Part shown: piece by piece, positions 1 through 49,889 of the stretch
How positions within the stretch are numbered: the first letter of the stretch is position 1
Layout: the number at the start of each line of letters is the position of its first letter
Assembly: GCA_973851085.1 (NCBI GenBank)
Contig: OZ316775.1
Span: 12,710,001-12,774,000, forward strand
Length of the DNA: 64,000 bases
Reading direction: 5' to 3'
Source: Ptychomitrium polyphyllum
Lineage: Eukaryota
The notes under the pieces: model-generated
Told to the model about the DNA's origin: nothing
The model's input: only the letters and a program-made list of their open reading frames with translations
The model's database searches: none
Translations under genes and position numbers: made by a program

Positions 1-1637
1 TAGAGGATTATCCTCCTCACTTGGATGAAGATGCTCACCATCATCTTGTGAGGCTCCTCTGCTGGTCTTAAGGGTGGAAGTCGCCTTGCTCTCCCCCTCC
101 ATTGTTCCTTCACCTCCATCCACATCTCCACCTTCTTCCTTGGTTGTTGTGGAGGATGTGTCCACAATCACACCATTACTCCCACTTGGACACATCCCCA
201 AGTGCTCACAAGCACTCTTGTGCTCCAAGAACTCAACATCACGACTCTTGATGATCTTCTTGCTCTCCACACACATCAACCTATATGCTTTGCTGCCCTC
301 ACAGTAACCCAAGAACACACACTTTGTACCCTTTGCATCAAGCTTGGACCTCATGCAATCTTGAACCTTTGCATATGCAAGGCATCCGAAGGTCCTCATG
401 TGTGAAACACAAGGCTTCTTACCACTCCAAGCTTCTTCGGGGGTCATGGATGCAAGGGCACTTGTGGGGCACCTATTTCTTGTGTACACCGCATTCACCA
501 CCGCTTCCGCCCACAACTCATGTCCAAGATGTTGGGCATGAAGCATGCTCCTCGCCATCTCCACAATGGTGCGATTTGCCCTCTCAGCAACTCCATTTTG
601 TTGTGGAGTGTATGGAGTGGAGGTTTGCCTTGCAATGCCTTCACTCCTCAACAAGTCATCAAAACATTTGGATAAGAACTCACCACCATTATCCGAACGC
701 AACACCTTGATCTTGGACTCACATTGCTTCTCCACAAGCGCCTTGAACTCCTTGAATCTTGCAAAGCATTCGCTCTTGGCCTTGAGGATGAACACCCATA
801 CTTTCCTCGAATAATCATCAATGAAGGTGAGGAAGTACCTTGCTCCCCCGATGGATGGAGTCCTCATAGGCCCGCACACGTCGGAATGCACAATCTCCAA
901 CAATTTGCTTGCACGACTTGCCACTCCACTTGGAAACGACGCCCTTTGCTGCTTGCCTTGGATGCAAGCCTCACAAGCAAGTTCCTTGGCCTTGTGGCAT
1001 GTTGTACCGAGATCCAAGCCGCTTACCATGCCTTGGAGCTCCTTCATGGCCTTCACATTGAGGTGCCCAAGGCGCCCATGCCATATGCCAAACTTGTCTT
1101 GGTCTTGCCTCCCACAACAACCTCCACCACAATGGAACCCATTCCAATGGCCTCCACCACGCCATTGTCACCCATGAGCACACTAGTGGCTGCAATTGCC
1201 TCATAAGTATGGAATGAGCACTTGTAAGGAGTCATGTGCTTTGTGGCGCCCGAATCAACTATCCACTTGGACAAGGCCGCCATAGGCGCCCCCTCGCTTG
1301 CCATGAAGGCACAATCACCACCTCCAAGGTGGTCCATCACATGGTTGGCATCCTCCCTCTCTCCTTTCTTCGCCTTGAAGCAATTTCGAGCAAAATGACC
1401 TGGTTTTCCACACACAAAGCGCATTCGAAGATTTGGACGTTGATTAGAATAGGTGGCCTTGCCTTGCCTCGAGAAGAGGGCGGAGTCCTCACTTGAATTC
1501 GCCTTCTCCTTCCTCTTGGTGTCCTCGTGGCTCAATCTCGCCGTCACATAGTCCATGGTGAGGTCCTTGATGGGAATGGACTCCAAGGCCACTATGAGAT
1601 AGCTATAGGACTCCGGCAAGCTCATGAGCAATGTAAT
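1..1637 (-). pseudogene. Copy E0, downstream part: gag-PR-integrase fragment with 238-bp deletion, interrupted by a nested insertion
   Basis: Integrase and gag sequence match the other copies. Deletion junction TCTTGGTCTT at 1097-1106. Ends at TSD GTAAT 1633-1637. Confidence 0.9.
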
Positions 1638-2065
1638 TATTGAAGAAATGCAACAAAGCTAGTACAACAAGCAAGAAGAGAGAGAGCAAAGTTGCAACAA
1701 GAGAAGTGTGGAGCAAGATGACTCGCACTTCCAAAACCCCTTTACTTATACTTGAGAGTCATCCACCAAAATGTGCCACTTGGCGGCCATGCATTTGCCT
1801 CTACTATATGAGTGACATGTGGCGGCTAACCCTAACCCTAGCCGCCGTACCCGCCACCCTAACCCTAACGGCCGCCCTAACCCTAATGGCCGCCCTAACC
1901 TTAGCCGCCATACAAAACCCTTGTTGCCTTTTCTTAACCCTAGCCTCCATATCCCCTATAGCCTCTTTCCTCACACTCCTTTGACCATTAGCAACATATC
2001 ATGCTCTAAGTCTACACAAGGATACTTCAACTAGGATTACTTTATATGTTTCACACTTTGCAACA
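1638..2065 (-). repeat. LTR L1 (428 bp), 3' LTR of E1
   Basis: TATTG...CAACA on +. PPT on the right, TSD GTAAT on the left. Confidence 0.95.
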
Positions 2066-2083
2066 CTCCCACTTTGCTACTGG

Positions 2084-5000
2084 TCAAAGGGCCTTTAGTC
2101 CAATTGACCTCGTGAACAACTGGTGTCTATCTCTTACCAATGCTTTTGTCAACAAATCAGCAAGCATGCCCTCTGTTGCACAATACCTCATATCTATCAC
2201 TCCATCTTCAATCTTCTCTCTTATGAAGTGATGTTGGATGTCAATGTGCTTTGTTCGTGAGTGATGCTTGGGATTCTTGGCAAAGGCAAGACATCCTTGA
2301 TTGTCACACATGATGGGCGTTGCACCCAGTTGTACAAGTCCAATGTCCTCCAAGAGTTGCCTCAGCCACATTGCTTCCATTGCACCATGACTTGCCGCCA
2401 TGTACTCCGCCTCCATGGTTGACCTTGCAATTGTGGGTTGCCTCTTGCAGTTCCAAGAGATGGCTCCCACTCCAACAAAGAACACATACCCCGTTGTGGA
2501 GCGCCTATCATTTGCATCTCCAGCCCAATCCGCATCACAAAATCCCTGCAACTCAATGTTATCACCTCCCAGACACAACACAAAGTCCAAGGTGCCCTTC
2601 AAGTACCTCATGATCCTCTTGATGGTTGCCCAGTGCATGGGGCCGGCCTTGGACATGTGTTGGCTCACAACACTCACCGAAAACGCAAGATCAAACCTTG
2701 TGCCCACCATGGCATACATGAGGCATCCCACTCCGGCCTTGTATGGAACGCCTTGCATTTCGCCCTCCACTTGAGCATACTCCTCATCACTTAGCTTCAT
2801 CAACCTCAAGTTTGCCTCCAAAGGCGTTCCCACTGGCTTGCAGTCTTCCATGTTGAATCGCTTCAACACCTCTTCCATGTACTTCTTCTGGCTCATGGTG
2901 ATGGTCCTCTTTGCACGATCCCTCACAAATTCCACTCCAAGACAATAGTGTAACTCGCCCAAATCACTCATCTCAAACTCCTGCTCTAATTTGGCCTTCA
3001 ACCACTCTAGCTTCTCCGAAAGGTTGGCCAACATGATCAAGTCATCCACATAGAGAATCACAATCAACAAGAATTCCATGGTCTGCATCACATACAAGGA
3101 ATGATCCGCCTCACTTCTCACAAACCCTTCCTTCCTAAAGAATGCATCAATGCGTTGGTACCATGCCCTTGGCGATTGCTTAAGCCCGTACAAGGCCTTC
3201 TTCAACTTGCAAACAAGGTGTTCCAAGCCTTCATGTACAAACCCTGGAGGTTGCTCCATGTAGATGTCTTCTTCCAACTCTCCATTTAGAAAGGCCGTCT
3301 TCACATCCATCTGGTGCACCTCCAAGTCCATTGCCGCAGCTATGGCCAAGATGGTCCTAATGGTGGTGAACTTGGCCACAGGTGCAAAGGTCTCATTGAA
3401 GTCCACACCAGCAACTTGTGAGTATCCTTTGGCAACTAGCCTTACCTTGTGCCTCACAATTGCACCCGAAGCATCCCTCTTGCTTCTAAACACCCACTTG
3501 CAACCTATACAAGAACGATTTGGAGGAAGTTGAGTCAAGTGCCATGTGCCATTGTCCATGAGCGACTTGTACTCCTCTTCCATGGCCTTCTCTCAGTTCA
3601 TTGCATCCGTGGACTTCAAGGCATCGCACATAGTTAAAGGATCAACGAGGAGGGCAACATTGGCATGTTCTGCACTCACTTTTGGAAAGATGTGGTTCTT
3701 CCACCATTCACCAAGTGGCCTCCTCTCCCTCATGGGATACCTCCTTCCACTCATTGCAGGCCTCTCTTCTTGTAATGCATCCCCTTCTCCTTCACTTAGA
3801 GGATTATCCTCCTCACTTGGATGAAGATGCTCACCATCATCTTGTGAGGCTCCTCTGCTGGTCTTAAGGGTGGAAGTCGCCTTGCTCTCCCCCTCCATTG
3901 TTCCTTCACCTCCATCCACATCTCCACCTTCTTCCTTGGTTGTTGAGGATGTGTCCACAATCACACCATTACTCCCACTTGGACACATCTCCAAGTGCTC
4001 ACAAGCACTCTTGTGCTCCAAGAACTCAACATCACGACTCTTGATGATCTTCTTGCTCTCCACACACATCAACCTATATGCTTTGCTGCCCTCACAATAA
4101 CCAAAGAACACACACTTTGTACCCTTTGCATCAAGCTTGGACCTCATGCAATCTGGAACCTTTGCATATGCAAGGCATCCGAAGGTCCTCATGTGTGAAA
4201 CACAAGGCTTCTTACCACTCCAAGCTTCTTCAGGGGTCATGGATGCAAGGGCACTTGTGGGGCACCTATTTCTTGTGTACACCGCATTCACCACCGCTTC
4301 CGCCCACAACTCATGTCCAAGATGTTGGGCATGAAGCATGCTCCTCGCCATCTCCACAATGGTGCGATTTGCCCTCTCAGCAACTCCATTTTGTTGTGGA
4401 GTGTATGGAGTGGAGGTTTGCCTTGCAATGCCTTCACTCCTCAACAAGTCATCAAAACATTTGGATAAGAACTCACCACCATTATCCGAACGCAACACCT
4501 TGATCTTGGACTCACATTGCTTCTCCACGAGCGCCTTGAACTCCTTGAATCTTGCGAAGCATTCGCTCTTGGCCTTGAGGATGAACACCCATACTTTCCT
4601 CGAATAATCATCAATGAAGGTGAGGAAGTACCTTGCTCCCCCGATGGATGGAGTCCTCATAGGCCCGCACACGTCGGAATGCACAATCTCCAACAATTTG
4701 CTTGCACGACTTGCCACTCCACTTGGAAACGACGCCCTTTGCTGCTTGCCTTGGATGCAAGCCTCACAAGCAAGTTCCTTGGCCTTGTGGCATGTTGTAC
4801 CGATATCCAAGCCGCTTACCATGCCTTGGAGCTCCTTCATGGCCTTCACATTGAGGTGCCCAAGGCGCCCATGCCATATGCCAAACTTGTCTTGGTCTTC
4901 AATGAACTCAGCAAAGGCCGCCACCTCCACTCCATTCACCTTCTTACACTTGATGAAGTACAAGTTGCCATCCCTCAACCCCGTGGCAACCACATCTCCA

Positions 5001-6124
5001 CTCAATGACTTCACAATACATCCATTCACATTGAAATGAGCCACAAACCCTCCCATCACAAGTTTGCTCACCGAAAGGAGGTTGGACTTCATCTTTGGCA
5101 CATGCAGCACGTCCTTGAAGGTGATCCTCTTGGTCTTGCCTCCCACAACAACCTCCACCACAATGGAACCCATTCCAATGGCCTCCACCACGCCATTGTC
5201 ACCCATGAGCACACTAGTGGCTGCAATTGCCTCATAAGTATGGAATGAGCACTTGTAAGGAGTCATGTGCTTTGTGGCGCCCGAATCAACTATCCACTTG
5301 GATAGGGCCGCCATAGGCGCCCCCTCGCTTGCCATGAAGGCACAATCACCACCTCCAAGGTGGTCCATCACATGGTTGGCATCCTCCCTCTCTCCTTTCT
5401 TGGCCTTGAAGCAATTTCGAGCAAAATGACCTGGTTTTCCACACACAAAGCACGTTCGAAGATTTGGACGTTGATTAGAATAGGTGGCCTTGCCTTGCCT
5501 CGAGAAGAGGGCGGAGTCCTCACTTGAATTCGCCTTCTCCTTCCTCTTGGTGTCCTCGTGGCTCAATCTCGCCGTCACATAGTCCATGGTGAGGTCCTTG
5601 ATGGGAATGGACTCCAAGGCCACTATGAGATAGCTATAGGACTCCGGCAAGCTCATGAGCAATGTAATCACAACATCCGACTCCTCCAATGGCTTGTCCA
5701 CAATGGCAACTTGCCTTGCAAGGGCCTTCAACTTGTTAACATGCGCCATGAGGTCGTGGCCTTCTTCCATCTTGCAGTTCAAGAGCTTCCTCTTTGTGAA
5801 GATGATGTTGGAGAGGTTCTTGCTCTCATAGATGTTGCAAAGCGTCTTCCACGCTTCTGCTGGTCCAGTGCAAGAGATGATATGGGCGAAGTTGGCATCA
5901 TCAAGGTTGGTGGCAAGGATGCCAAAAGCCTTCTTCTCACGACGCTAGAACTCCTTCCTCTCCTTTGCATCTGCCGACAATGGTGGAGCAACCTCACTCT
6001 CATCTATGATGTCCCAAAGGTCCATAGAAGCCAACGAGAGCTCCATCCTAACCTTCCATTGGTAGAAGTTATCACCATGAAACTTTTGAATGACCCTAAG
6101 ACCTTCACCTTCACTCGAAGCCAT
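2084..6124 (-). pseudogene. Copy E1 gag-pol, full length with two nonsense codons (Q60stop at 5945-5947, W844stop at 3593-3595)
   Basis: Colinear with the 1346-aa ORF. The ORF track is split into 3593-5782 and 2084-3583. Confidence 0.92.
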
Positions 6125-6560
6125 GGCTTAAGAAGAGTGGTAACAAAACAAACCTTCAAACGAACTATTTCCTTGACTCCTATGCTTCTCACAAGTCTTC
6201 ACAACTATGAGTCCCAAGAAAAACCTTTCAACTCACTATGTCCACTCAATGAGCACACATATCAATGATCTCACAAGATAACAACACCAAGCACAACAAA
6301 ATGGTGTTAGGAAGCTTGAATCCAACAAAGACACTATCAAGGTCTTATCACCACTCAAAACAACTCACTATCCAAGGAGTTTCAACAACCACAACCCTAC
6401 TAGAGCTCAAGAAACATCAAACCAAGCACCTACATGTACAAAACTTCAAAGTTAGGCGTTTCTGACTATATCTTCAAAAACTATGAAGTGATCTTGCTCC
6501 ACACAAGAACAACAACTACAAAACACTTCAAGCTACTTCAAAAGGCACAACTAAGAGTGA

Positions 6561-6574
6561 GTGGGCCCATAACC
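6561..6574 (-). other. Primer-binding site GGTTATGGGCCCAC (half tRNA-iMet type); also at 8501, 9840, 14542, 22763, 24576, 29516, 37825, 42627, 47430
   Basis: Directly abuts the LTR end. The + strand GTGGGCCCATAACC equals the anticodon-arm sequence of plant initiator tRNA-Met. Confidence 0.9.
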
Positions 6575-7002
6575 TATTGAAGAAATGCAACAAAGCTAGT
6601 ACAACAAGCAAGAAGAGAGAGAGCAAAGTTGCAACAAGAGAAGTGTGGAGCAAGATGACTCGCACTTCCAAAACCCCTTTACTTATACTTGAGAGTCATC
6701 CACCAAAATGTGCCACTTGGCGGCCATGCATTTGCCTCTACTATATGAGTGACATGTGGCGGCTAACCCTAACCCTAGCCGCCGTAGCCGCCACCCTAAC
6801 CCTAACGGCCGCCCTAACCCTAATGGCCGCCCTAACCTTAGCCGCCATACAAAACCCTTGTTGCCTTTTCTTAACCCTAGCCTCCATATCCCCTATAGCC
6901 TCTTTCCTCACACTCCTTTGACCATTAGCAACATATCATGCTCTAAGTCTACACAAGGATACTTCAACTAGGATTACTTTATATGTTTCACACTTTGCAA
7001 CA
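6575..7002 (-). repeat. LTR L2 (428 bp), 5' LTR of E1; outer end joined to PR-region sequence of E2 (AGTTT...)
   Basis: PBS on the left; internal sequence instead of PPT on the right. Confidence 0.95.
6756..6847 (-). promoter_or_regulatory. U3 minisatellite (~18-bp units) with six TTAGGG hexamers and four AGCCGCC GCC boxes (shown for L2; similar in the other young LTRs)
   Basis: CCCTAACCCTAA dimers alternate with (A/G)GCCGCC. A candidate TATA (TATAAGTA, - strand) lies at 6680-6687. Function is inferred. Confidence 0.6.
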
Positions 7003-8066
7003 AGTTTGCTCACCGAAAGGAGGTTGGACTTCATCTTTGGCACATGCAGCACGTCCTTGAAGGTGATCCTCTTGGTCTTGCCTCCCACAACAACCTCCAC
7101 CACAATGGAACCCATTCCAATGGCCTCCACCACGCCATTGTCACCCATGAGCACACTAGTGGCTGCAATTGCCTCATAAGTATGGAATGAGCACTTGTAA
7201 GGAGTCATGTGCTTTGTGGCGCCCGAATCAACTATCCACTTGGATAGGGCCGCCATAGGCGCCCCCTCGCTTGCCATGAAGGCACAATCACCACCTCCAA
7301 GGTGGTCCATCACATGGTTGGCATCCTCCCTCTCTCCTTTCTTCGCCTTGAAGCAATTTCGAGCAAAATGACCTGGTTTTCCACACACAAAGCACGTTCG
7401 AAGATTTGGACGTTGATTAGAATAGGTGGCCTTGCCTTGCCTCGAGAAGAGGGCGGAATCCTCACTTGAATTCGCCTTTTCCTTCCTCTTGGTGTCCTCG
7501 TGGCTCAATCTCGCCGTCACATAGTCCATGGTGAGGTCCTTGATGGGAATGGACTCCAAGGCCACTATGAGATAGCTATAGGACTCCGGCAAGCTCATGA
7601 GCAATGTAATCACAACATCCGACTCCTCCAATGGCTTGTCCACAATGGCAACTTGCCTTGCAAGGGCCTTCAACTTGTTAACATGCGCCATGAGGTCGTG
7701 GCCTTCTTCCATCTTGCAGTTCAAGAGCTTCCTCTTTGTGAAGATGATGTTGGAGAGGTTCTTGCTCTCATAGATGTTGCAAAGCGTCTTCCACGCTTCT
7801 GCTGGTCCAGTGCAAGAGATGATATGGGCGAAGTTGGCATCATCAAGGTTGGTGGCAAGGATGCCAAAAGCCTTCTTCTCACGACGCTGGAACTCCTTCC
7901 TCTCCTTTGCATCTGCCGACAATGGTGGAGCAACCTCACTCTCATCTATGATGTCCCAAAGGTCCATAGAAGCCAACGAGAGCTCCATCCTAACCTTCCA
8001 TTGGTAGAAGTTATCACCATGAAACTTTTGAATGACCCTAAGACCTTCACCTTCACTCGAAGCCAT
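7003..8066 (-). pseudogene. Copy E2: gag and part of protease only, ending at LTR L2
   Basis: ORF 6936-8066 with zinc knuckle and DSG protease motif, reading into an LTR-derived tail. Confidence 0.9.
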
Positions 8067-8514
8067 GGCTTAAGAAGAGTGGTAACAAAACAAACCTTCA
8101 AACGAACTATTTCCTTGACTCCTATGCTTCTCACAAGTCTTCACAACTATGAGTCCCAAGAAAAACCTTTCAACTCACTATGTCCACTCAATGAGCACAC
8201 ATATCAATGATCTCACAAGATAACAACACCAAGCACAACAAAATGGTGTTAGGAAGCTTGAATCCAACAAAGACACTATCAAGGTCTTATCACCACTCAA
8301 AACAACTCACTATCCAAGGAGTTTCAACAACCACAACCCCAAGAGCTTAAGAAACATCAAACCAAGCACCTACATGTGCAAAACCTCAAAGTTAGGCGTT
8401 TCTAACTCTATCTTCAATAACTATGAAGTGATCTTGCTCCACACAAGAACAACAACTACAACACACTTCAAGCTACTTCAAAAGGCACAACTAAGAGTGT
8501 GTGGGCCCATAACC

Positions 8515-8942
8515 TATTGAAGAAATGCAACAAAGCTAATACAACAAGCAAGAAGAGAGAGAGCAAAGTTGCAACAAGAGAAGTGTGGAGCAAGATGACT
8601 CGCACTTCCAAAACCCCTTTACTTATACTTGAGAGTCATCCACCAAAATGTGCCACTTGGCGGCCATGCATTTGCCTCTACTATATGAGTGACATGTGGC
8701 GGCTAACCCTAACCCTAGCCGCCGTAGCCGCCACCCTAACCCTAACGGCCGCCCTAACCCTAATGGCCGCCCTAACCTTAGCCGCCATACAAAACCCTTG
8801 TTGCCTTTTCTTAACCCTAGCCTCCATATCCCCTATAGCCTCTTTCCTCACACTCCTTTGACCATTAGCAACATATCATGCTCTAAGTCTACACAAGGAT
8901 ACTTCAACTAGGATTACTTTATATGTTTCACACTTTGCAACA
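8515..8942 (-). repeat. LTR L3 (428 bp), 5' LTR of E2; flanked by TSD GTAAT 8943-8947
   Basis: PBS on the left; GTAAT and resumed E0 gag on the right. Confidence 0.95.
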
Positions 8943-9403
8943 GTAATCACAACATCCGACTCGTCCAATGGCTTGTCCACAATGGCAACTTGCCTTGCAA
9001 GGGCCTTCAACTTGTTCACATGCGCCTTGAGGTCGTGGCCTTCTTCCATCTTGCAGTTCAAGAGCTTCCTCTTTGTGAAGATGATGTTGGAGAGGTTCTT
9101 GCTCTCATAGATGTTGCAAAGCGTCTTCCACGCTTCTGCCGGTCCAGTGCAAGAGATGATATGGGCGAAGTTGGCATCATCAAGGTTGGTGGCAAGGATG
9201 CCAAAAGCCTTCTTCTCACGACGCTGGAACTCCTTCCTCTCCTTTGCATCTGCCGACAATGGTGGAGCAACCTCACTCTCATCTATGATGTCCCAAAGGT
9301 CCATAGAAGCCAACGAGAGCTCCATCCTAACCTTCCATTGGTAGAAGTTATCACCATGAAACTTTTGAATGACCCTAAGACCTTCACCTTCACTCGAAGC
9401 CAT
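8943..9403 (-). pseudogene. Copy E0, upstream part: N-terminal gag
   Basis: Continues exactly from 1637 once 1638-8942 and one TSD copy are removed. Confidence 0.9.
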
Positions 9404-9853
9404 GGCTTAAGAAGAGAGGTAACAAAACAAACCTTCAAACGAACTATTTCCTTGACTCCTATACTTCTCACAAGTCTTCACAACTATGAGTCCCAAGAAA
9501 AACCTTTCAACTCACTATGTCCACTCAATGAGCACACATATCAATGAACTCACAAGACAACAACACCAAGCACAACAAAATGGTGTTAGGAAGCTTCAAT
9601 CCAACAAAGACACTATCAAGGTCTTATCACCACTCAAAACAACTCACTATCCAAGGAGTTTCAACAACCACAACCCTACTAGAGCTCAAGAAACATCAAA
9701 CCAAGCACCTACATGTGCAAAACTTCAAAGTTAGGCGTTTCTAACTCTATCTTCAATAACTATGAAGTGATCTTGCTCCACACAAGAACAACAACTACAA
9801 AACACTTCAAGCTACTTCAAAAGGCACAACTAAGTGTGAGTGGGCCCATAACC

Positions 9854-10281
9854 TATTGAAGAAATGCAACAAAGCTAGTACAGCAAGCAAGAAGAGAGAG
9901 AGCAAAGTTGCAACAAGAGAAGTGTGGAGCAAGATGACTCCCACTTCCAAAACCCCTTTACTTATACTTGAGAGTCATCCACCAAAATGTGCCACTTGGC
10001 GGCCATGCATTTGCCTCCACTATATGAGTGACATGTGGCGGCTAACTCTAACCCTAGCCGCCGTAGCCGCCACCCTAACCCTAACGGCCGCCCTAACCCT
10101 AATGGCCGCCCTAACCCTAGCCGCCATACAAAACCCTTGTTGCCTTTTCTTAACCCTAGCCTCCATATCCCCTATAGCCTCTTTCCTCACACTCCTTTGA
10201 CCATTAGCAACATATCATGCTCTAAGTCTACACAAGGATACTTCAACTAGGATTACTTTATATGTTTCACACTTTGCAACC
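9854..10281 (-). repeat. LTR L4, shared between E0 and E3; terminal TG mutated to GG
   Basis: PBS on one side, PPT on the other, no TSD. 10281 is C where other LTRs have A. Confidence 0.93.
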
Positions 10282-10299
10282 CTCCCACTTTGCTACTGG

Positions 10300-14983: not shown

Positions 14984-15001
14984 CTCCCACTTTGCTACTG
15001 G

Positions 15002-18269: not shown

Positions 18270-18279
18270 CTCCCACTTT
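18270..18279 (-). other. Polypurine tract AAAGTGGGAG (representative)
   Basis: Immediately precedes the 3' LTR TG, only ~8 bp after the pol stop. Confidence 0.8.
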
Positions 18280-18287
18280 GCTACTGG

Positions 18288-32789: not shown

Positions 32790-32899
32790 CTTTAATCCAA
32801 TTGACCTCGTCAACAACCGGTGTCTATCTCTTACCAATGCTTTTGTTAACAAATCAGCAAGCATGCCCTCTGTTGCACAATACCTCATATCTATCACTC

Positions 32900-33329: not shown

Positions 33330-33347
33330 CTCCCACTTTGCTACTGG

Positions 33348-37838: not shown

Positions 37839-38266
37839 TATTGAAGAAATGCAACAAAGCTAGTACAACAAGCAAGAAGAGAGAGAGCAAAGTTGCAACA
37901 AGAGAAGTGTGGAGCAAGATGACTCGCACTTCCAAAACCCCTTTACTTATACTTGAGAGTCATCCACCAAAATGTGCCACTTGGCGGCCATGCATTTGCC
38001 TCTACTATATGAGTGACATGTGGCGGCTAACTCTAACCCTAGCCGCCGTACCCGCCACCCTAACCCTACCGGCCGCCCTAACCCTAATGGCCGCCCTAAC
38101 CTTAGCCGCCATACAAAACCCTTGTTGCCTTTTCTTAACCCTAGCCTCCATATCCCCTATAGCCTCTTTCCTCACACTCCTTTGACCATTAGCAACATAT
38201 CATGCTCTAAGTCTACACAAGGATACTTCAACTAGGATTACTTTATATGTTTCACACTTTGCAACA
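37839..38266 (-). repeat. LTR L12 (428 bp), joined to RNase H sequence at ATCTT
   Basis: PBS on the left; no PPT on the right. Confidence 0.95.
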
Positions 38267-41200
38267 ATCTTCAATCTTCTCTCTTATGAAGTGATGTTGG
38301 ATGTCAATGTGCTTTGTTCGTGAGTGATGCTTGGGATTCTTGGCAAAGGCAAGACATCCCTGATTGTCACACATGATGGGCGTTGCACCCAGTTGTACAA
38401 GTCCAATGTTGTCCAAGAGTTGCCTCAGCCACATTGCTTCCATTGCACCATGACTTGCCGCCATGTACTCCGCCTCCATGGTTGACCTTGCAATTGTGGG
38501 TTGCCTCTTGCAGTTCCAAGAGATGGCTCCCACTCCAACAAAGAACACATACCCCGTTGTGGAGCGCCTATCATTTGCATATCCAGCCCAATCCGCGTCG
38601 CAAAATCCCTGCAACTCAATGTTATCATCTCCCAGACACAACACAAAGTCCAAGGTGCCCTTCAAGTACCTCATGATCTTCTTGATGGTTGCCCAGTGCA
38701 TGGGGCCGGCCTTGGACATGTGTTGGCTCACAACACTCACCGAAAACGCAAGATCAAACCTTGTGCCCACCATGGCATACATGAGGCACCCCACTCCGCC
38801 CTTGTATGGAACGCCTTGCATTTCGCCCTCCACTTGAGCATACTCCTCATCACTTAGCTTCATCAACCTCAAGTTTGCCTCCAAAGGCGTTTCCACTGGC
38901 TTGCAGTCTTCCATGTTGAATCGCTTCAACACCTCTTCCATGTACTTCTTCTGGCTCATGGTGATGGTCCTCTTTGCACGATCCCTCACAAATTCCACTC
39001 CAAGACAATAGTGTAACTCGCCCAAATCACTCATCTCAAACTCCTGCTCTAATTTGGCCTTCAACCACTCTAGCTTCTCCGAAAGGTTGGCCAACATGAT
39101 CAAGTCATCCACATAGAGAATCACAATCAACAAGAATTCCATGGTCTGCATCACATACAAGGAATGATCCGCCTCACTTCTCACAAACCCTTCCTTCCTA
39201 AAGAATGCATCAATGCGTTGGTACCATGCCCTTGGCGATTGCTTAAGCCCGTACAAGGCCTTCTTCAACTTGCAAACAAGGTGTTCCAAGCCTTCATGTA
39301 CAAACCCTGGAGGTTGCTCCATGTAGATGTCTTCTTCCAACTCTCCATTTAGAAAGGCCGTCTTCACATCCATCTGGTGCACCTCCAAGTCCATTGCCGC
39401 AGCTATGGCCAAGATGGTCCTAATGGTGGTGAACTTGGCCACAGGTGCAAAGGTCTCATTGAAGTCCACACCAGCAACTTGTGAGTATCCTTTGGCAACT
39501 AGCCTTGCCTTGTGCCTCACAATTGCACCCGAAGCATCCCTCTTGGTTCTAAACACCCACTTGCAACCTATGCAAGAACGATTTGGAGGAAGTTGAGTCA
39601 AGTGCCATGTGCCATTGTCCATGAGCGACTTGTACTCCTCTTCCATGGCCTTCTCCCAGTTCATTGCATCCGTGGACTTCAAGGCATCGCACATAGTTAA
39701 AGGATCAACGAGGAGGGCAACATTGGCATGTTCTGCACTCACTTTTGGAAAGATGTGGTTCTTCCACCATTCACCAAGTGGCCTCCTCTCCCTCATGGGA
39801 TACCTCCTTCCACTCATTGCAGGCCTCTCTTCTTGTAATGCATCCCCTTCTCCTTCACTTAGAGGATTATCCTCCTCACTTGGATGAAGATGCTCACCAT
39901 CATCTTGTGAGGCTCCTCTGCTGGTCTTAAGGGTGGAAGTCGCCTTGCTCTCCCCCTCCATTGTTCCTTCACCTCCATCCACATCTCCACCTTCTTCCTT
40001 GGTTGTTGTGGAGGATGTGTCCACAATCACACCATTACTCCCACTTGGACACATCCCCAAGTGCTCACAAGCACTCTTGTGCTCCAAGAACTCAACATCA
40101 CCACTCTTGATGATCTTCTTGCTCTCCACACACATCAACCTATATGCTTTGCTGCCCTCACAGTAACCCAAGAACACACACTTTGTACCCTTTGCATCAA
40201 GCTTGGACCTCATGCAATCTTGAACCTTTGCATATGCAAGGCATCCGAAGGTCCTCATGTGTGAAACACAAGGCTTCTTACCACTCCAAGCTTCTTCGGG
40301 GGTCATGGATGCAAGGGCACTTGTGGGGCACCTATTTCTTGTGTACACCGCATTCACCACCGCTTCCGCCCACAACTCATGTCCAAGATGTTGGGCATGA
40401 AGCATGCTCCTCGCCATCTCCACAATGGTGCGATTTGCCCTCTCAGCAACTCCATTTTGTTGTGGAGTGTATGGAGTGGAGGTTTGCCTTGCAATGCCTT
40501 CACTCCTCAACAAGTCATCAAAACATTTGGATAAGAACTCACCACCATTATCCGAACGCAACACCTTGATCTTGGACTCACATTGCTTCTCCACGAGCGC
40601 CTTGAACTCCTTGAATCTTGCGAAGCATTCGCTCTTGGCCTTGAGGATGAACACCCATACTTTCCTCGAATAATCATCAATGAAGGTGAGGAAGTACCTT
40701 GCTCCCCCGATGGATGGAGTCCTCATAGGCCCGCACACGTCGGAATGCACAATCTCCAACAATTTGCTTGCACGACTTGCCACTCCACTTGGAAACGACG
40801 CCCTTTGCTGCTTGCCTTGGATGCAAGCCTCACAAGCAAGTTCCTTGGCCTTGTGGCATGTTGTACCGATATCCAAGCCGCTTACCATGCCTTGGAGCTC
40901 CTTCATGGCCTTCACATTGAGGTGCCCAAGGCGCCCATGCCATATGCCAAACTTGTCTTGGTCTTCAATGAACTCAGCAAAGGCCGCCACCTCCACTCCA
41001 TTCACCTTCTTACACTTGATGAAGTACAAGTTGCCATCCCTCAACCCCGTGGCAACCACATCTCCACTCAATGACTTCACAATACATCCATTCACATTGA
41101 AATGAGCCACAAACCCTCCCATCACAAGTTTGCTCACCGAAAGGAGGTTGGACTTCATCTTTGGCACATGCAGCACGTCCTTGAAGGTGATCCTCTTGGT

Positions 41201-42190
41201 CTTGCCTCCCACAACAACCTCCACCACAATGGAACCCATTCCAATGGCCTCCACCACGCCATTGTCACCCATGAGCACACTAGTGGCTGCAATTGCCTCA
41301 TAAGTATGGAATGAGCACTTGTAAGGAGTCATGTGCTTTGTGGCGCCCGAATCAACTATCCACTTGGATAGGGCCGCCATAGGCGCCCCCTCGCTTGCCA
41401 TGAAGGCACAATCACCACCTCCAAGGTGGTCCATCACATGGTTGGCATCCTCCCTCTCTCCTTTCTTGGCCTTGAAGCAATTTCGAGCAAAATGACCTGG
41501 TTTTCCACACACAAAGCACGTTCGAAGATTTGGACGTTGATTAGAATAGGTGGCCTTGCCTTGCCTCGAGAAGAGGGCGGAGTCCTCACTTGAATTCGCC
41601 TTCTCCTTCCTCTTGGTGTCCTCGTGGCTCAATCTCGCCGTCACATAGTCCATGGTGAGGTCCTTGATGGGAATGGACTCCAAGGCCACTATGAGATAGC
41701 TATAGGACTCCGGCAAGCTCATGAGCAATGTAATCACAACATCCGACTCCTCCAATGGCTTGTCCACAATGGCAACTTGCCTTGCAAGGGCCTTCAACTT
41801 GTTAACATGCGCCATGAGGTCGTGGCCTTCTTCCATCTTGCAGTTCAAGAGCTTCCTCTTTGTGAAGATGATGTTGGAGAGGTTCTTGCTCTCATAGATG
41901 TTGCAAAGCGTCTTCCACGCTTCTGCCGGTCCAGTGCAAGAGATGATATGGGCGAAGTTGGCATCATCAAGGTTGGTGGCAAGGATGCCAAAAGCCTTCT
42001 TCTCACGACGCTGGAACTCCTTCCTCTCCTTTGCATCTGCCGACAATGGTGGAGCAACCTCACTCTCATCTATGATGTCCCAAAGGTCCATAGAAGCCAA
42101 CGAGAGCTCCATCCTAACCTTCCATTGGTAGAAGTTATCACCATGAAACTTTTGAATGACCCTAAGACCTTCACCTTCACTCGAAGCCAT
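38252..42190 (-). CDS. Copia gag-pol, 1312 aa (E8), RNase H C-terminus replaced by LTR-derived CCKV
   Basis: Open ORF that lacks the final ADLLTKAL motif and the PPT; probably defective. Confidence 0.85.
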   Translation of the reverse strand: MASSEGEGLRVIQKFHGDNFYQWKVRMELSLASMDLWDIIDESEVAPPLSADAKERKEFQRREKKAFGILATNLDDANFAHIISCTGPAEAWKTLCNIYESKNLSNIIFTKRKLLNCKMEEGHDLMAHVNKLKALARQVAIVDKPLEESDVVITLLMSLPESYSYLIVALESIPIKDLTMDYVTARLSHEDTKRKEKANSSEDSALFSRQGKATYSNQRPNLRTCFVCGKPGHFARNCFKAKKGEREDANHVMDHLGGGDCAFMASEGAPMAALSKWIVDSGATKHMTPYKCSFHTYEAIAATSVLMGDNGVVEAIGMGSIVVEVVVGGKTKRITFKDVLHVPKMKSNLLSVSKLVMGGFVAHFNVNGCIVKSLSGDVVATGLRDGNLYFIKCKKVNGVEVAAFAEFIEDQDKFGIWHGRLGHLNVKAMKELQGMVSGLDIGTTCHKAKELACEACIQGKQQRASFPSGVASRASKLLEIVHSDVCGPMRTPSIGGARYFLTFIDDYSRKVWVFILKAKSECFARFKEFKALVEKQCESKIKVLRSDNGGEFLSKCFDDLLRSEGIARQTSTPYTPQQNGVAERANRTIVEMARSMLHAQHLGHELWAEAVVNAVYTRNRCPTSALASMTPEEAWSGKKPCVSHMRTFGCLAYAKVQDCMRSKLDAKGTKCVFLGYCEGSKAYRLMCVESKKIIKSGDVEFLEHKSACEHLGMCPSGSNGVIVDTSSTTTKEEGGDVDGGEGTMEGESKATSTLKTSRGASQDDGEHLHPSEEDNPLSEGEGDALQEERPAMSGRRYPMRERRPLGEWWKNHIFPKVSAEHANVALLVDPLTMCDALKSTDAMNWEKAMEEEYKSLMDNGTWHLTQLPPNRSCIGCKWVFRTKRDASGAIVRHKARLVAKGYSQVAGVDFNETFAPVAKFTTIRTILAIAAAMDLEVHQMDVKTAFLNGELEEDIYMEQPPGFVHEGLEHLVCKLKKALYGLKQSPRAWYQRIDAFFRKEGFVRSEADHSLYVMQTMEFLLIVILYVDDLIMLANLSEKLEWLKAKLEQEFEMSDLGELHYCLGVEFVRDRAKRTITMSQKKYMEEVLKRFNMEDCKPVETPLEANLRLMKLSDEEYAQVEGEMQGVPYKGGVGCLMYAMVGTRFDLAFSVSVVSQHMSKAGPMHWATIKKIMRYLKGTLDFVLCLGDDNIELQGFCDADWAGYANDRRSTTGYVFFVGVGAISWNCKRQPTIARSTMEAEYMAASHGAMEAMWLRQLLDNIGLVQLGATPIMCDNQGCLAFAKNPKHHSRTKHIDIQHHFIREKIEDCCKV

Positions 42191-42640
42191 GGCTTAAGAA
42201 GAGAGGTAACAAAACAAACCTTCAAACGAACTATTTCCTTGACTCCTATGCTTCTCACAAGTCTTCACAACTATGAGTCCCAAGAAAAACCTTTCAACTC
42301 ACTATGTCCACTCAATGAGCACACATATCAATGATCTCACAAGATAACAACACCAAGCACAAGAAAATGGTGTTAGGAAGCTTGAATCCAACAAAGACAC
42401 TATCAAGGTCTTATCACCACTCAAAGCAACTCACTATCCAAGGAGTTTCAACAACCACAACCCTACTAGAGCTTAAGAAACATCAAACCAAGCACCTATA
42501 TGTGCAAAACTTCAAAGTTAGGCGTTTCTAACTATATCTTCAATAACTATGAAGTGATCTTGCTCCACACAAGAACAACAACTACAAAACACTTCAAGCT
42601 ACTTCAAAAGGCACAACTAAGAGTGAGTGGGCCCATAACC

Positions 42641-43068
42641 TATTGAAGAAATGCAACAAAGCTAGTACAACAAGCAAGAAGAGAGAGAGCAAAGTTGCAA
42701 CAAGAGAAGTGTGGAGCAAGATGACTCGCACTTCCAAAACCCCTTTACTTATACTTGAGAGTCATCCACCAAAATGTGCCACTTGGCGGCCATGCATTTG
42801 CCTCTACTATATGAGTGACATGTGGCGGCTAACTCTAACCCTAGCCGCCGTACCCGCCACCCTAACCCTACCGGCCGCCCTAACCCTAATGGCCGCCCTA
42901 ACCTTAGCCGCCATACAAAACCCTTGTTGCCTTTTCTTAACCCTAGCCTCCATATCCCCTATAGCCTCTTTCCTCACACTCCTTTGACCATTAGCAACAT
43001 ATCATGCTCTAAGTCTACACAAGGATACTTCAACTAGGATTACTTTATATGTTTCACACTTTGCAACA
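42641..43068 (-). repeat. LTR L13 (428 bp), same sequence variants and same ATCTT junction as L12
   Basis: Private CCCTACCGGCC variant shared with L12. Confidence 0.95.
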
Positions 43069-46000
43069 ATCTTCAATCTTCTCTCTTATGAAGTGATGTT
43101 GGATGTCAATGTGCTTTGTTCGTGAGTGATGCTTGGGATTCTTGGCAAAGGCAAGACATCCCTGATTGTCACACATGATGGGCGTTGCACCCAGTTGTAC
43201 AAGTCCAATGTTGTCCAAGAGTTGCCTCAGCCACATTGCTTCCATTGCACCATGACTTGCCGCCATGTACTCCGCCTCCATGGTTGACCTTGCAATTGTG
43301 GGTTGCCTCTTGCAGTTCCAAGAGATGGCTCCCACTCCAACAAAGAACACATACCCCGTTGTGGAGCGCCTATCATTTGCATATCCAGCCCAATCCGCGT
43401 CGCAAAATCCCTGCAACTCAATGTTATCATCTCCCAGACACAACACAAAGTCCAAGGTGCCCTTCAAGTACCTCATGATCTTCTTGATGGTTGCCCAGTG
43501 CATGGGGCCGGCCTTGGACATGTGTTGGCTCACAACACTCACCGAAAACGCAAGATCAAACCTTGTGCCCACCATGGCATACATGAGGCACCCCACTCCG
43601 CCCTTGTATGGAACGCCTTGCATTTCGCCCTCCACTTGAGCATACTCCTCATCACTTAGCTTCATCAACCTCAAGTTTGCCTCCAAAGGCGTTTCCACTG
43701 GCTTGCAGTCTTCCATGTTGAATCGCTTCAACACCTCTTCCATGTACTTCTTCTGGCTCATGGTGATGGTCCTCTTTGCACGATCCCTCACAAATTCCAC
43801 TCCAAGACAATAGTGTAACTCGCCCAAATCACTCATCTCAAACTCCTGCTCTAATTTGGCCTTCAACCACTCTAGCTTCTCCGAAAGGTTGGCCAACATG
43901 ATCAAGTCATCCACATAGAGAATCACAATCAACAAGAATTCCATGGTCTGCATCACATACAAGGAATGATCCGCCTCACTTCTCACAAACCCTTCCTTCC
44001 TAAAGAATGCATCAATGCGTTGGTACCATGCCCTTGGCGATTGCTTAAGCCCGTACAAGGCCTTCTTCAACTTGCAAACAAGGTGTTCCAAGCCTTCATG
44101 TACAAACCCTGGAGGTTGCTCCATGTAGATGTCTTCTTCCAACTCTCCATTTAGAAAGGCCGTCTTCACATCCATCTGGTGCACCTCCAAGTCCATTGCC
44201 GCAGCTATGGCCAAGATGGTCCTAATGGTGGTGAACTTGGCCACAGGTGCAAAGGTCTCATTGAAGTCCACACCAGCAACTTGTGAGTATCCTTTGGCAA
44301 CTAGCCTTGCCTTGTGCCTCACAATTGCACCCGAAGCATCCCTCTTGCTTCTAAACACCCACTTGCAACCTATGCAAGAACGATTTGGAGGAAGTTGAGT
44401 CAAGTGCCATGTGCCATTGTCCATCAGCGACTTGTACTCCTCTTCCATGGCCTTCTCCCAGTTCATTGCATCCGTGGACTTCAAGGCATCGCACATAGTT
44501 AAAGGATCAACGAGGAGGGCAACATTGGCATGTTCTGCACTCACTTTTGGAAAGATGTGGTTCTTCCACCATTCACCAAGTGGCCTCCTCTCCCTCATGG
44601 GATACCTCCTTCCACTCATTGCAGGCCTCTCTTCTTGTAATGCATCCCCTTCTCCTTCACTTAGAGGATTATCCTCCTCACTTGGATGAAGATGCTCACC
44701 ATCATCTTGTGAGGCTCCTCTGCTGGTCTTAAGGGTGGAAGTCGCCTTGCTCTCCCCCTCCATTGTTCCTTCACCTCCATCCACATCTCCACCTTCTTCC
44801 TTGGTTGTTGTGGAGGATGTGTCCACAATCACACCATTACTCCCACTTGGACACATCCCCAAGTGCTCACAAGCACTCTTGTGCTCCAAGAACTCAACAT
44901 CACCACTCTTGATGATCTTCTTGCTCTCCACACACATCAACCTATATGCTTTGCTGCCCTCACAGTAACCCAAGAACACACACTTTGTACCCTTTGCATC
45001 AAGCTTGGACCTCATGCAATCTTGAACCTTTGCATATGCAAGGCATCCGAAGGTCCTCATGTGTGAAACACAAAGGCTTCTTACCACTCCAAGCTTCTTC
45101 GGGGGTCATGGATGCAAGGGCACTTGTGGGGCACCTATTTCTTGTGTACACCGCATTCACCACCGCTTCCGCCCACAACTCATGTCCAAGATGTTGGGCA
45201 TGAAGCATGCTCCTCGCCATCTCCACAATGGTGCGATTTGCCCTCTCAGCAACTCCATTTTGTTGTGGAGTGTATGGAGTGGAGGTTTGCCTTGCAATGC
45301 CTTCACTCCTCAACAAGTCATCAAAACATTTGGATAAGAACTCACCACCATTATCCGAACGCAACACCTTGATCTTGGACTCACATTGCTTCTCCACAAG
45401 CGCCTTGAACTCCTTGAATCTTGCAAAGCATTCGCTCTTGGCCTTGAGGATGAACACCCATACTTTCCTCAAATAATCATCAATGAAGGTGAGGAAGTAC
45501 CTTGCTCCCCCGATGGATGGAGTCCTCATAGGCCCGCCCACGTCGGAATGCGCAATCTCCAACAATTTGCTTGCACGACTTGCCACTCCACTTGGAAACG
45601 ACGCCCTTTGTTGCTTGCCTTGGATGCAAGCCTCACAAGCAAGTTCCTTGGCCTTGTGGCATGTTGTACCGAGATCCAAGCCGCTTACCATGCCTTGGAG
45701 CTCCTTCATGGCCTTCACATTGAGGTGCCCAAGGCGCCCATGCCATATGCCAAACTTGTCTTGGTCTTCAATGAACTCAGCAAAGGCCGCCACCTCCACT
45801 TCATTCACCTTCTTACACTTGATGAAGTACAAGTTGCCATCCCTCAACCCCGTGGCAACCACATCTCCACTCAATGACTTCACAATACATCCATTCACAT
45901 TGAAATGAGCCACAAACCCTCCCATCACAAGTTTGCTCACCGAAAGGAGGTTGGACTTCATCTTTGGCACATGCAGCACGTCCTTGAAGGTGATCCTCTT

Positions 46001-46993
46001 GGTCTTGCCTCCCACAACAACCTCCACCACAATGGAACCCATTCCAATGGCCTCCACCACGCCATTGTCACCCATGAGCACACTAGTGGCTGCAATTGCC
46101 TCATAAGTATGGAATGAGCACTTGTAAGGAGTCATGTGCTTTGTGGCGCCCGAATCAACTATCCACTTGGACAAGGCCGCCATAGGCGCCCCCTCGCTTG
46201 CCATGAAGGCACAATCACCACCTCCAAGGTGGTCCATCACATGGTTGGCATCCTCCCTCTCTCCTTTCTTGGCCTTGAAGCAATTTCGAGCAAAATGACC
46301 TGGTTTTCCACACACAAAGCGCATTCGAAGATTTGGACGTTGATTAGAATAGGTGGCCTTGCCTTGCCTCGAGAAGAGGGCGGAGTCCTCACTTGAATTC
46401 GCCTTCTCCTTCCTCTTGGTGTCCTCGTGGCTCAATCTCGCCGTCACATAGTCCATGGTGAGGTCCTTGATGGGAATGGACTCCAAGGCCACTATGAGAT
46501 AGCTATAGGACTCCGGCAAGCTCATGAGCAATGTAATCACAACATCCGACTCGTCCAATGGCTTGTCCACAATGGCAACTTGCCTTGCAAGGGCCTTCAA
46601 CTTGTTCACATGCGCCATGAGGTCGTGGCCTTCTTCCATCTTGCAGTTCAAGAGCTTCCTCTTTGTGAAGATGATGTTGGAGAGGTTCTTGCTCTCATAG
46701 ATGTTGCAAAGCGTCTTCCACGCTTCTGCCGGTCCAGTGCAAGAGATGATATGGGCGAAGTTGGCATCATTAAGGTTGGTGGCAAGGATGCCAAAAGCCT
46801 TCTTCTCACGACGCTGGAACTCCTTCCTCTCCTTTGCATCTGCCGACAATGGTGGAGCAACCTCACTCTCATCTATGATGTCCCAAAGGTCCATAGAAGC
46901 CAACGAGAGCTCCATCCTAACCTTCCATTGGTAGAAGTAATCACCATGAAACTTTTGAATGACCCTAAGACCTTCACCTTCACTCGAAGCCAT
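43069..46993 (-). pseudogene. Copy E9 gag-pol, 3'-truncated, 1-bp frameshift at ~45072-45074
   Basis: ORFs 44999-46993 and 43054-45087. The extra A may be a sequencing error. Confidence 0.88.
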
Positions 46994-47443
46994 GGCTTAA
47001 GAAGAGAGGTAACAAAACAAACCTTCAAACGAACTATTTCCTTGACTCCTATACTTCTCACAAGTCTTCACAACTATGAGTCCCAAGAAAAACCTTTCAA
47101 CTCACTATGTCCACTCAATGAGCACACATATCAATGAACTCACAAGACAACAACACCAAGCACAACAAAATGGTGTTAGGAAGCTTGAATCCAACAAAGA
47201 CACTATCAAGGTCTTATCACCACTCAAAACAACTCACTATCCAAGGAGTTTCAACAACCACAACCCTACTAGAGCTCAAGAAACATCAAACCAAGCACCT
47301 ACATGTGCAAAACTTCAAAGTTAGGCGTTTCTAATTCTATCTTCAATAACTATGAAGTGATCTTGCTCCACACAAGAACAACAACTACAAAACACTTCAA
47401 GCTACTTCAAAAGGCACAACTAAGTGTGAGTGGGCCCATAACC

Positions 47444-47871
47444 TATTGAAGAAATGCAACAAAGCTAGTACAGCAAGCAAGAAGAGAGAGAGCAAAGTTG
47501 CAACAAGAGAAGTGTGGAGCAAGATGACTCCCACTTCCAAAACCCCTTTACTTATACTTGAGAGTCATCCACCAAAATGTGCCACTTGGCGGCCATGCAT
47601 TTGCCTCCACTATATGAGTGACATGTGGCGGCTAACTCTAACCCTAGCCGCCGTAGCCGCCACCCTAACCCTAACGGCCGCCCTAACCCTAATGGCCGCC
47701 CTAACCCTAGCCGCCATACAAAACCCTTGTTGCCTTTTCTTAACCCTAGCCTCCATATCCCCTATAGCCTCTTTCCTCACACTCCTTTGACCATTAGCAA
47801 CATATCATGCTCTAAGTCTACACAAGGATACTTCAACTAGGATTACTTTATATGTTTCACACTTTGCAACA
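47444..47871 (-). repeat. LTR L14 (428 bp), 5' LTR of E9, inserted into the + strand copy F at GGTAT
   Basis: Orientation switches exactly at the LTR terminus. Confidence 0.95.
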
Positions 47872-49527
47872 GGTATCCCATGAGGGAGAGGAGGCCAGTT
47901 GGTGAATGGTGGAAGAACCACATCTTTCCAAAAGTGAGTGCAGAACATGCCAATGTTGCCCTCCTTGTCGATCCTTTAACTATGTGTGATGCCTTGAAGT
48001 CCACGGATGCAATGAACTGGGAGAAGGCCATGGAAGAGGAGTACAAGTCGCTGATGGACAATGGCACATGGCACTTGACTCAACTTCCTCCAAATCGTTC
48101 TTGCATAGGTTGCAAGTGGGTGTTTAGAACCAAGAGGGATGCTTCGGGTGCAATTGTGAGGCACAAGGCAAGGCTAGTTGCCAAAGGATACTCACAAGTT
48201 GCTGGTGTGGACTTCAATGAGACCTTTGCACCTGTGGCCAAGTTCACCACCATTAGGACCATCTTGGCCATAGCTGCGGCAATGGACTTGGAGGTGCACC
48301 AGATGGATGTGAAGACGGCCTTTCTAAATGGAGAGTTGGAAGAAGACATCTACATGGAGCAACCTCCAGGGTTTGTACATGAAGGCTTGGAACACCTTGT
48401 TTGCAAGTTGAAGAAGGCCTTGTACGGGCTTAAGCAATCGCCAAGGGCATGGTACCAACGCATTGATGCATTCTTTAGGAAGGAAGGGTTTGTGAGAAGT
48501 GAGGCGGATCATTCCTTGTATGTGATGCAGACCATGGAATTCTTGTTGATTGTGATTCTCTATGTGGATGACTTGATCATGTTGGCCAACCTTTCGGAGA
48601 AGCTAGAGTGGTTGAAGGCCAAATTAGAGCAGGAGTTTGAGATGAGTGATTTGGGCGAGTTACACTATTGTCTTGGAGTGGAATTTGTGAGGGATCTTGC
48701 AAAGAGGACCATCACCATGAGCCAGAAGAAGAACATCGAAGAGGTGTTGAAGCGATTCAACATGGAAGACTGCAAGCCAGTGGGAACGCCTTTGGCAAAC
48801 TTGAGGTTGATGAAGCTAAGTGATGAGGAGTATGCTCAAGTGGAGGGCGAAATGCAAGGCGTTCCATACAAGGGCGGAGTGGGGTGCCTCATGTATGCCA
48901 TGGTGGGCACAAGGTTTGATCTTGCGTTTTCGGTGAGTGTTGTGAGCCAACACATGTCCAAGGCCGGCCCCATGCACTGGACAACCATCAAGAAGATCAT
49001 GAGGTACTTGAAGGGCACCTTGGACTTTGTGTTGTGTCTGGGAGGTGATAACATTGAGTTGCAGGGATTTTGCGACGCGGATTAGGCTGGAGAGGCAAAT
49101 GATAGGCGCTCCACAACGGGGTATGTGTTCTTTGTTGGAATGGGAGCCATCTCTTGGAACTGCAAGAGGCAACCTGCAATTGCAAGGTCAACCATGGAGG
49201 CGGAGTACATGGCGGCAAGTCATGGTGCAATGGAAGCAATGTGGCTGAGGCAACTCTTGGAGGACATTGGACTTGTACAAGTGGGTGCAACGCCCATCAT
49301 ATGTGACAATCAAGGATGTCTTGCCTTTCCCAAGGATCCCAAGTATCACTTACGAACAAAGCACATCAACATTCAGCATCACTTCATAAGAGAGAAGATT
49401 GAAGATGGAGTGATAGGTATGAGGTATTGTGCAGTAGAAGGCATGCTTGCTAAATTGTTGACAGAAGCATTGGTAAATAGATAGGCACCAATTGTTGACA
49501 AGGTCAATTGGATTAAAGGTCGTTTGA
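47872..49527 (+). pseudogene. Copy F: RT-RNase H in + orientation with nonsense codons (e.g. 49083-49085)
   Basis: ORFs 47880-49085 and 49125-49484; YVDD present. Confidence 0.92.
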
Positions 49528-49545
49528 CCAATAGCAAAGTATGAG

Positions 49546-49889
49546 TGTTGTAAAGGGTGAAATATATGAAGTCATCCTAGTTGAAGTTTCCTTGTGTTGG
49601 ACTCGAGCTTGATAGGTTGTTAATGGTCAAAGGGATGTTAGGAAGGAGGTTATAGAAGATATGGAGACTAGGGTTAAGAAAAGGCAACAAGGATTTTGTA
49701 TGGCGGCTAGGATTAGGCCGGCCGGTTGGAGGCAAATGCATGGCTACCAAATGGCACACTTTGGTGGATGACTCCTAAGTATAAATAAAGGGGTTTTGGA
49801 AGTGGGAGACATCTTGCTCCACACATCTCTTTTTGCAACTTTGCTCTCTTTTCTTGCTTGTTGTATTATTTTGTTGCATTTCTTCAATA
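49546..49889 (+). repeat. LTR L15 (344 bp), diverged 3' LTR of F and outer boundary of the array
   Basis: TGTTG...CAATA; many substitutions; lacks most of the TTAGGG/GCC block; right flank TTACT. Confidence 0.9.

Follow-up and report, generated by a model that had tools for sequence, protein, structure and literature searches.

We analyzed a 64,000-nucleotide stretch of DNA (contig OZ316775.1, positions 12,710,001 to 12,774,000; hereafter the window), in which positions 1-49889 are occupied by an array of long terminal repeat (LTR) retrotransposons of the copia type and the remainder is genic. When the array was compared with itself and aligned to a complete unit (24590-29957; 5,368 bp, encoded on the minus strand), 47,725 of the 49,889 bp (95.7%) were assigned to a single family, here called family A, and 2,064 bp to a related one, family B. 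The array carries 15 family A LTRs (L1 to L15), which as a rule are 428 bp long with TG..TA ends; 13 of them lie on one strand, and L10 and L15 are inverted. Two contigs make up the array, with a scaffold gap (100 N) between them, and its left side is open at the window edge. At the right edge the old, roughly 12% diverged L15 is the only LTR that adjoins non-element DNA (junction TTACT). As a first-pass annotation of this DNA had reported, no family copy follows in 49890-64000, where searches returned one 30-bp blastn match (E=0.31) and zero tblastn or tblastx hits.

The retrotransposon families

Between its LTRs, family A has a single 1,348-codon frame with the copia order of gag, zinc knuckle, protease, integrase, SH3 and reverse transcriptase (RT). 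Pfam matches follow one another as gag_2, zf-CCHC, Pol_BBD, rve, SH3, and RVT_2, the arrangement of the Ty1/copia superfamily, and RNase H (RH) was read from the translation. The frame is uninterrupted in three family A units, and the remaining units contain stops or a frameshift or have lost 238 bp, a deletion that shows microhomology of 10 bp. Over 13 nt the primer site matches the middle (anticodon-arm part) of a published human initiator transfer RNA (tRNA)-Met oligonucleotide (PMC1797187), from which the moss tRNA itself may differ, and this indicates a half-tRNA-Met as the putative primer. A tRNA scan was empty. Family B shares both the primer type and the TG..TA ends. Family A is young: its paired LTRs differ at 1-2 sites, which corresponds to roughly 0.1-0.3 million years at the rate given in a Physcomitrium patens preprint.

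The TG..TA ends of the family B LTR (31790-32021) and of all family A LTRs, in place of TG..CA, mean that standard LTR finders may miss both families. Each family A LTR (e.g., 29715-29830) also contains five telobox-like AACCCTA units alternating with GCCGCC, and this telobox/GCC array varies in length, with an 18-bp deletion in L6 and L7 and part of it absent in L10 and L15.

Integration into resident copies

Matched 5-bp duplications flank only two insertions, L1-L3 (GTAAT) and L6-L7 (ATTCC), and excision of either restores a continuous host sequence, without a mismatch in 60 bp. This restoration of the host, together with the 90 internal sites at which the units differ, indicates that the array is real, and the junctions listed in the first-pass annotation were confirmed. 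The remaining integration junctions are orphans: AGTTT (L2), TTTGC (L9, into family B), CTTTA (L10), CACTC (L11), ATCTT (L12 and L13) and GGTAT (L14). All of the junction 5-mers read earlier were recovered, but the one of L11 is CACTC (element positions 561-565) and not ATCTT; L11 and L12 differ at 14 sites. Because L12 and L13 are identical and have the same junction, they represent one event that was later duplicated. L4, L5, and L8 are shared LTRs and have no integration junction.

This leaves about eight independent young family A integrations, seven in family A and one in family B, so that the previous statement that all young junctions but one lie in family A stands, with the qualification that only two are matched pairs and that L12/L13 count once. 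In a block that is 96% family A junctions can hardly fall elsewhere, and it is the clustering itself that is the non-trivial fact. Nesting goes both ways, with the LTR of family B lying in an inverted family A element and L9 of family A lying in family B. Target positions in family A are scattered in the window (element positions 3427, 3538, 4030, and 2101), and a single insertion hotspot within the element is not supported on this ground. Some sites fall within 30 bp of an LTR end or of another junction (L10, 27 bp from an LTR boundary, and possibly L9). The orientation of the target is shared by six of the eight independent events (p=0.29). The raw count of 13 of 15 LTRs in one orientation, correctly given in the first-pass annotation, yields p=0.007 but includes copies made by recombination, and it does not hold up as evidence of guided integration.

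The CACTC (32895-32899) and ATCTT (38267-38271) junctions belong to different insertions that lie 6 bp apart in the element; one target struck twice, followed by collapse through LTR recombination, would explain the pair. Directly after L9 its terminal 9 nt are repeated exactly (29949-29969), which is unlikely by chance; the repeat is either family B's own sequence, with which the family B protein aligns plausibly, or the result of an insertion into an older family A LTR, 9 nt short of its end. An inverted family A element is found on either side of the scaffold gap (32022-32789), and ~3.9 kb would be missing if both parts belong to one element. As for the orphan junctions, it can be reasoned that circles formed by autointegration and then recombined into the array would leave the same junctions as nesting followed by deletion, the two being alike in sequence.

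Tandem growth by recombination

Once nested insertions are removed, the left part of the array is a head-to-tail run with a period of 4,702 bp and 99.6-99.8% identity, made up of three deleted units and one full unit that share L4, L5, and L8. Internal regions alternate there with single LTRs that have a primer site on one side and a polypurine tract on the other, as in shared-LTR tandems. Farther to the right, the unit at 38267-43068 is a clean crossover product: as far as element position 2598 it agrees with the unit on its right (20 of 22 informative sites), and from position 2895 with the unit on its left (32 of 32). Across ten units, 459 of 1,263 site pairs fail the four-gamete test. The shared-LTR units could have arisen by unequal exchange or by recombination of complementary DNA (cDNA) into resident copies; since the deleted units are inexact copies (two of them have 18 differences over 4,702 bp), repeated cDNA recombination or gene conversion is possible beside unequal exchange. 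Much of the length of the array comes from tandem growth of this recombination type, and the 13/15 orientation bias mostly reflects that growth.

Shared-LTR tandems of LTR retrotransposons have been documented in rice and other plants (PMC11899658), and those of Tf1, Ty1, and Ty5 arise by Rad52-dependent cDNA recombination (PMC11042837, which also treats Tf2). The array resembles these cases in its LTR-internal-LTR-internal-LTR structure, formed by recombination with no new target duplications; unlike them, as far as those accounts go, it combines such tandems with integrase-type nesting in one 50-kb block. The units are listed in Table 1.

Table 1. Segments of the array and the flanking gene, in window coordinates.
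Position	Strand	Feature
1-1637	-	Family A internal piece with 238-bp deletion; left part of the unit split by the GTAAT insertion, open at window edge
1638-8942	-	Composite insert L1-internal-L2/AGTTT-partial internal-L3 with matched GTAAT duplication at its ends; open reading frame of the full unit has internal stops
8943-17859	-	Head-to-tail family A units sharing L4 (9854-10281) and L5 (14556-14983), each with the 238-bp deletion (10-bp microhomology)
17860-23186	-	Full-length family A element L6-L7, 18-bp deletion in both LTRs, matched ATTCC duplication, uninterrupted 1,347-codon frame
23187-24589	-	Rest of the deleted unit split by L6-L7
24590-29957	-	Reference full-length family A unit (5,368 bp): shared LTR L8, frame 25036-29082 (gag-protease-integrase-RT-RH), half-tRNA-Met type primer site, L9 joined to family B
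29958-32021	-	Family B copia, 5' part: gag-protease, primer site, ~230-bp LTR with TG..TA ends; split by family A on one side, inserted in inverted family A on the other
32022-32789	+	Inverted family A element flanking the gap (element positions 4640-4536 and 630-1), ending in L10 at the CTTTA junction
32127-32226	.	Scaffold gap, 100 N
32790-32899	-	110-bp family A fragment (element positions 456-565), struck by L10 on one side and L11 on the other
32900-38266	-	Unit L11-L12, LTRs differing at 14 sites, likely a recombinant of two insertions; uninterrupted frame
38267-43068	-	Crossover duplicate: right-hand unit to element position 2598, left-hand unit from 2895; ATCTT junction repeated
43069-47871	-	Family A unit cut at ATCTT, ending in L14 at the GGTAT junction; frame broken by 1-bp insertion
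47872-49889	+	Oldest, inverted family A remnant (~96% internal; L15 ~12% diverged); sole junction with non-element DNA
51000-57400	-	Flanking multi-exon RIN2-type E3 ubiquitin ligase gene, limits approximate

Assembly support and copies beyond the window

Among the 90 variable internal sites, 51 are common to at least two units, and 19 of the 36 shared sites inside the open reading frame (ORF) are at third codon positions. The right edge of the array is bridged by a 492-bp public contig with 0 differences; no contig spans the array, and the gap is unbridged. In public sequencing run X2, the duplicated ATCTT junction has a depth of 1,236 compared to 553, 574, and 307 for three unique-flank contigs, about twice the single-copy value, which points to two copies of this junction.

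Public contigs also contain family A junctions from elsewhere. Among the 15 joints listed in a comparison of a single-LTR stretch with the contigs, three start at the LTR end: the ATCTT junction of the window and two self-junctions absent from the window, which fall at element positions 1058 and 2674 and have sides of 26-28 letters. A second comparison, in which 15 of 89 joints were listed, yielded at least three further LTR-into-family joints that have no counterpart in the window, and the joints read overall include element positions 3730, 4394, and 4676. In an independent low-coverage run with the same species label (X4), one contig links the end of the LTR with the integrase region read on the other strand. 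Listed joints whose sides measure 20-23 letters (e.g., from 47137 and 25990, or to 27001) were in most cases discounted, since they are probably alignment errors caused by sequence variants. Junction detection is incomplete, so that proportions of self and non-self insertion are not derivable from these counts. Summed element depth is a few hundred times the single-copy depth, a rough figure by which the copy number of family A is likely in the order of hundreds. Run X3, which is from a different organism (organism B), contains a ~92%-alike flank and high-depth relatives of family A.

Host and lineage

The first coding exon of the flanking RIN2 gene is 94% identical to that of Ceratodon purpureus and 86% identical to that of P. 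patens (6 hits among 256 candidates), and the host, judged by this exon, is a moss. Within the copia superfamily, the length of family A (5,368 bp), the 5-bp duplications of both paired insertions (2/2), and its single frame with no extra ORF agree with the Bryco lineage, for which REXdb gives 5,039-5,564 bp, a 5-bp duplication and a half-tRNA-Met primer in 6/6 elements. In the REXdb description, the half-tRNA-Met primer is a property of Osser, Bryco, and part of Gymco-II. Homology searches with the family A polyprotein found two groups only, unnamed proteins that are 64-84% identical to it and named ones from angiosperms, oomycetes, and arthropods that are 33-52% identical. Similarly, in an RT-RH tree of 89 rows, from which 31 redundant named rows and hits aligning over fewer than 400 residues were left out, family A falls in a clade of 33 rows, all unnamed, separate from the angiosperm copia rows (Shimodaira-Hasegawa-like approximate likelihood ratio test 100, quick method). 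Host, size, target duplication and primer site together make family A probably a member of Bryco/RLC5, and the RLC5/Bryco comparison drawn in the first-pass annotation is therefore apt and probably names the system itself rather than a mere analogue. The density of the cluster, with at least 49.9 kb that is 96% family A in young full-length and truncated copies, also fits the tens to 200 kb of RLC5-type moss centromeres, and the locus would appear to work like an RLC5/Bryco centromeric cluster, agreeing in every Bryco feature that could be compared.

A candidate moss centromere edge

We interpret the locus as a pile of one young copia family in a moss that grew by nesting and head-to-tail duplication and that is probably the edge of a Bryco/RLC5-type centromere. 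In this history, integrase-type events put about eight family A ends and one family B end at scattered positions in older copies of the two families, and homologous recombination may then have lengthened and trimmed the pile, giving the shared-LTR tandems, the orphan junctions and the crossover duplicate. The integrase may read centromeric CENH3 chromatin, as with the Arabidopsis copia Tal1, and the apparent self-targeting would arise because the centromere is already made of these elements. The oldest remnant would mark the border with genic DNA, with younger copies building up inside.

We infer the centromere identity and the steering of the integrase by chromatin from the lineage features and from published moss and Tal1 cases. 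In P. patens, all 26 CENH3 peaks fall on RLC5/Bryco clusters (10.1101/2023.05.19.541548; PMC7466625; PMC10984392), and such clusters have been described in Ceratodon (PMC8245031), Sphagnum (PMC9946827, with the same result in PMC13120521), and Polytrichastrum (10.64898/2026.09.17.752431). CENH3-mapped centromeres of Syntrichia are copia-dominant and span 81.5-203.5 kb, with no mention of Bryco or nesting in the supplement of that study (PMC11869191). The Tal1 integrase follows CENH3 (PMC11735389), and autoinsertion has been discussed as a by-product of sharing a niche (PMC6911290).

Each family is found nested in the other, and the family A LTR is linked to non-family DNA in at least 24 contigs, so that a chromatin domain, and not strictly the element itself, appears to be the target. 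The first-pass proposal of guided integration into existing copies thus retains the repeated integration in a small region, and its strict self-targeting becomes doubtful; the feedback loop through chromatin that it proposes is a hypothesis. Nor is the seeding of a centromere-like island beside genes, which that annotation proposed, unusual in mosses, whose copia centromeres measure only ~80-200 kb and which, as the Sphagnum study indicates, lack repeat-rich pericentromeres (PMC9946827).

Several points weigh against a centromeric Bryco cluster. The RT-RH tree contained no named Bryco/RLC5 reference, the LTR ends are TG..TA as opposed to the TG..CA by which the REXdb elements were selected, and one study reports 4-bp duplications as commonest for Bryco (PMC6911290). 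Four RLC5 clusters occur on linkage group LG01 of S. divinum (PMC9946827), so that the locus could be a secondary cluster. The left end of the LTR is joined to long AT-rich non-family DNA in at least 24 contigs of run X1 and at least 17 of X2, and the right end in at least eight of X1, which implies that part of the family A copies are located away from clusters or that cluster edges are many. The read evidence is itself bounded: runs X1 and X2 are one sample that may be the source of the assembly, and their depth is no copy number; the rows listed for the single-LTR comparison comprise 15 of 218 joints, 12 of 93 with letters between and 16 of 507 loose ends; and joint sides shorter than 30 letters are often spurious.

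The array may instead be a secondary or former-centromere heterochromatic cluster of the same lineage, with integrase or cDNA recombination drawn by silent chromatin and not by CENH3. Extra RLC5 clusters per chromosome in Sphagnum (PMC9946827), the single-family RLG1 islands on P. patens arms (PMC7466625) and the preference of Ty5 cDNA recombination for silent chromatin, as cited in PMC11042837, speak for such an origin, yet we consider it unlikely given that the copies are very young, that the 50 kb or more that is visible nears the 80-200 kb of moss centromeres (PMC11869191), and that CENH3 sits on the Bryco clusters tested so far (10.1101/2023.05.19.541548).

True self-targeting, in which a factor on family A sequence such as the LTR telobox/GCC array or the LTR ends recruits the integrase and centromere identity is irrelevant, is very unlikely. 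It would account for the seven of eight independent young junctions in family A and for the sites close to an LTR end or another junction (L10, the 6-bp spacing of L11 and L12, possibly L9), and each LTR has five AACCCTA boxes; against it stand the reciprocal nesting of the two families, the scatter of the other targets along the element, the many LTR ends joined to non-family DNA and the lack of orientation bias among independent events.

Passive accumulation, with random insertions surviving only in older elements while a haploid, gene-dense moss purges the rest, is highly improbable. The 14-kb flank is genic, so that its emptiness is partly selection, and non-family junctions do exist; however, selection would spare any repeat, and the block holds only two related copia families. 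If the family has hundreds of copies (a rough number) and the genome, as in other mosses, is assumed to measure a few hundred Mb, random insertion should place well under one copy in a block this small, whereas about eight are seen. That an assembler unrolled one or a few elements repeatedly is scarcely credible, for although the array contains a 100-N gap, a duplicate shaped like a false loop traversal and no spanning contig, its units differ at 90 internal sites, part of them shared between units and with a leaning to third codon positions, excision at the matched duplications regenerates the host sequence exactly, the duplicated junction has double depth and the right edge is bridged without differences.

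Comparison with known systems

Like the RLC5/Bryco clusters of mosses, the array has a moss host, a ~5.3-kb copia element, a 5-bp duplication and a half-tRNA-Met primer site, and it is dense, young, and nested, with full-length and truncated copies close to genes. It differs in its TG..TA LTR ends and in two related families nested both ways, and it is known from sequence while the P. patens clusters are CENH3-verified. Tandem growth is resolved here at the junction level and is not described for moss centromeres in the available parts of those accounts.

Tal1/ALE4 is a centrophilic copia of Arabidopsis, for which the working model has the C-terminal region of the integrase steering insertion to CENH3 chromatin (PMC11735389). 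It belongs to a different lineage and enters satellite arrays rather than itself, and its targeting is experimental where ours is inferred. Autoinsertion (PMC6911290) and the nested Athila centromeres of Geum (10.64898/2026.09.17.752431) concern mostly gypsy elements, in Geum with little tandem duplication; unlike these cases, the targets here are mainly coding regions and tandem growth is substantial.

The phenomenon is already published for several mosses, and this locus adds to it a history resolved into two growth routes. To the question of how copia clusters came to mark the centromeres of mosses it contributes a junction-by-junction record: nesting and recombination both build the cluster, two related families share the niche, and the family is young. 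The locus also provides a candidate centromere position and markers for this genome.

A speculative extension, which we regard as quite unlikely to be correct, is that moss Bryco centromeres build and renew themselves by two element-driven routes, integrase homing on resident LTR ends or on the telobox/GCC array, and integrase-free cDNA recombination into LTRs. If this were true, an array could seed a centromere wherever one copy sits, and the tandem units of 4.7 kb would represent an incipient satellite. In the available portions of the literature on RLC5, Bryco and moss centromeres, we found no test of Bryco target choice.

Flanking genes

The RIN2-type RING E3 ligase gene lies ~1-2 kb from the array edge, and its Ceratodon orthologue is KC19_1G037100. 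Three ORFs in the flank or spacers have no match in Pfam. A CT-rich microsatellite (57588-57739, period 8, 19.5 copies) is located upstream of the RIN2-type gene. Beyond it, at 59600-62700, a second small spliced gene is found on the minus strand, with a short exon near 62040-62225 and a telobox upstream.

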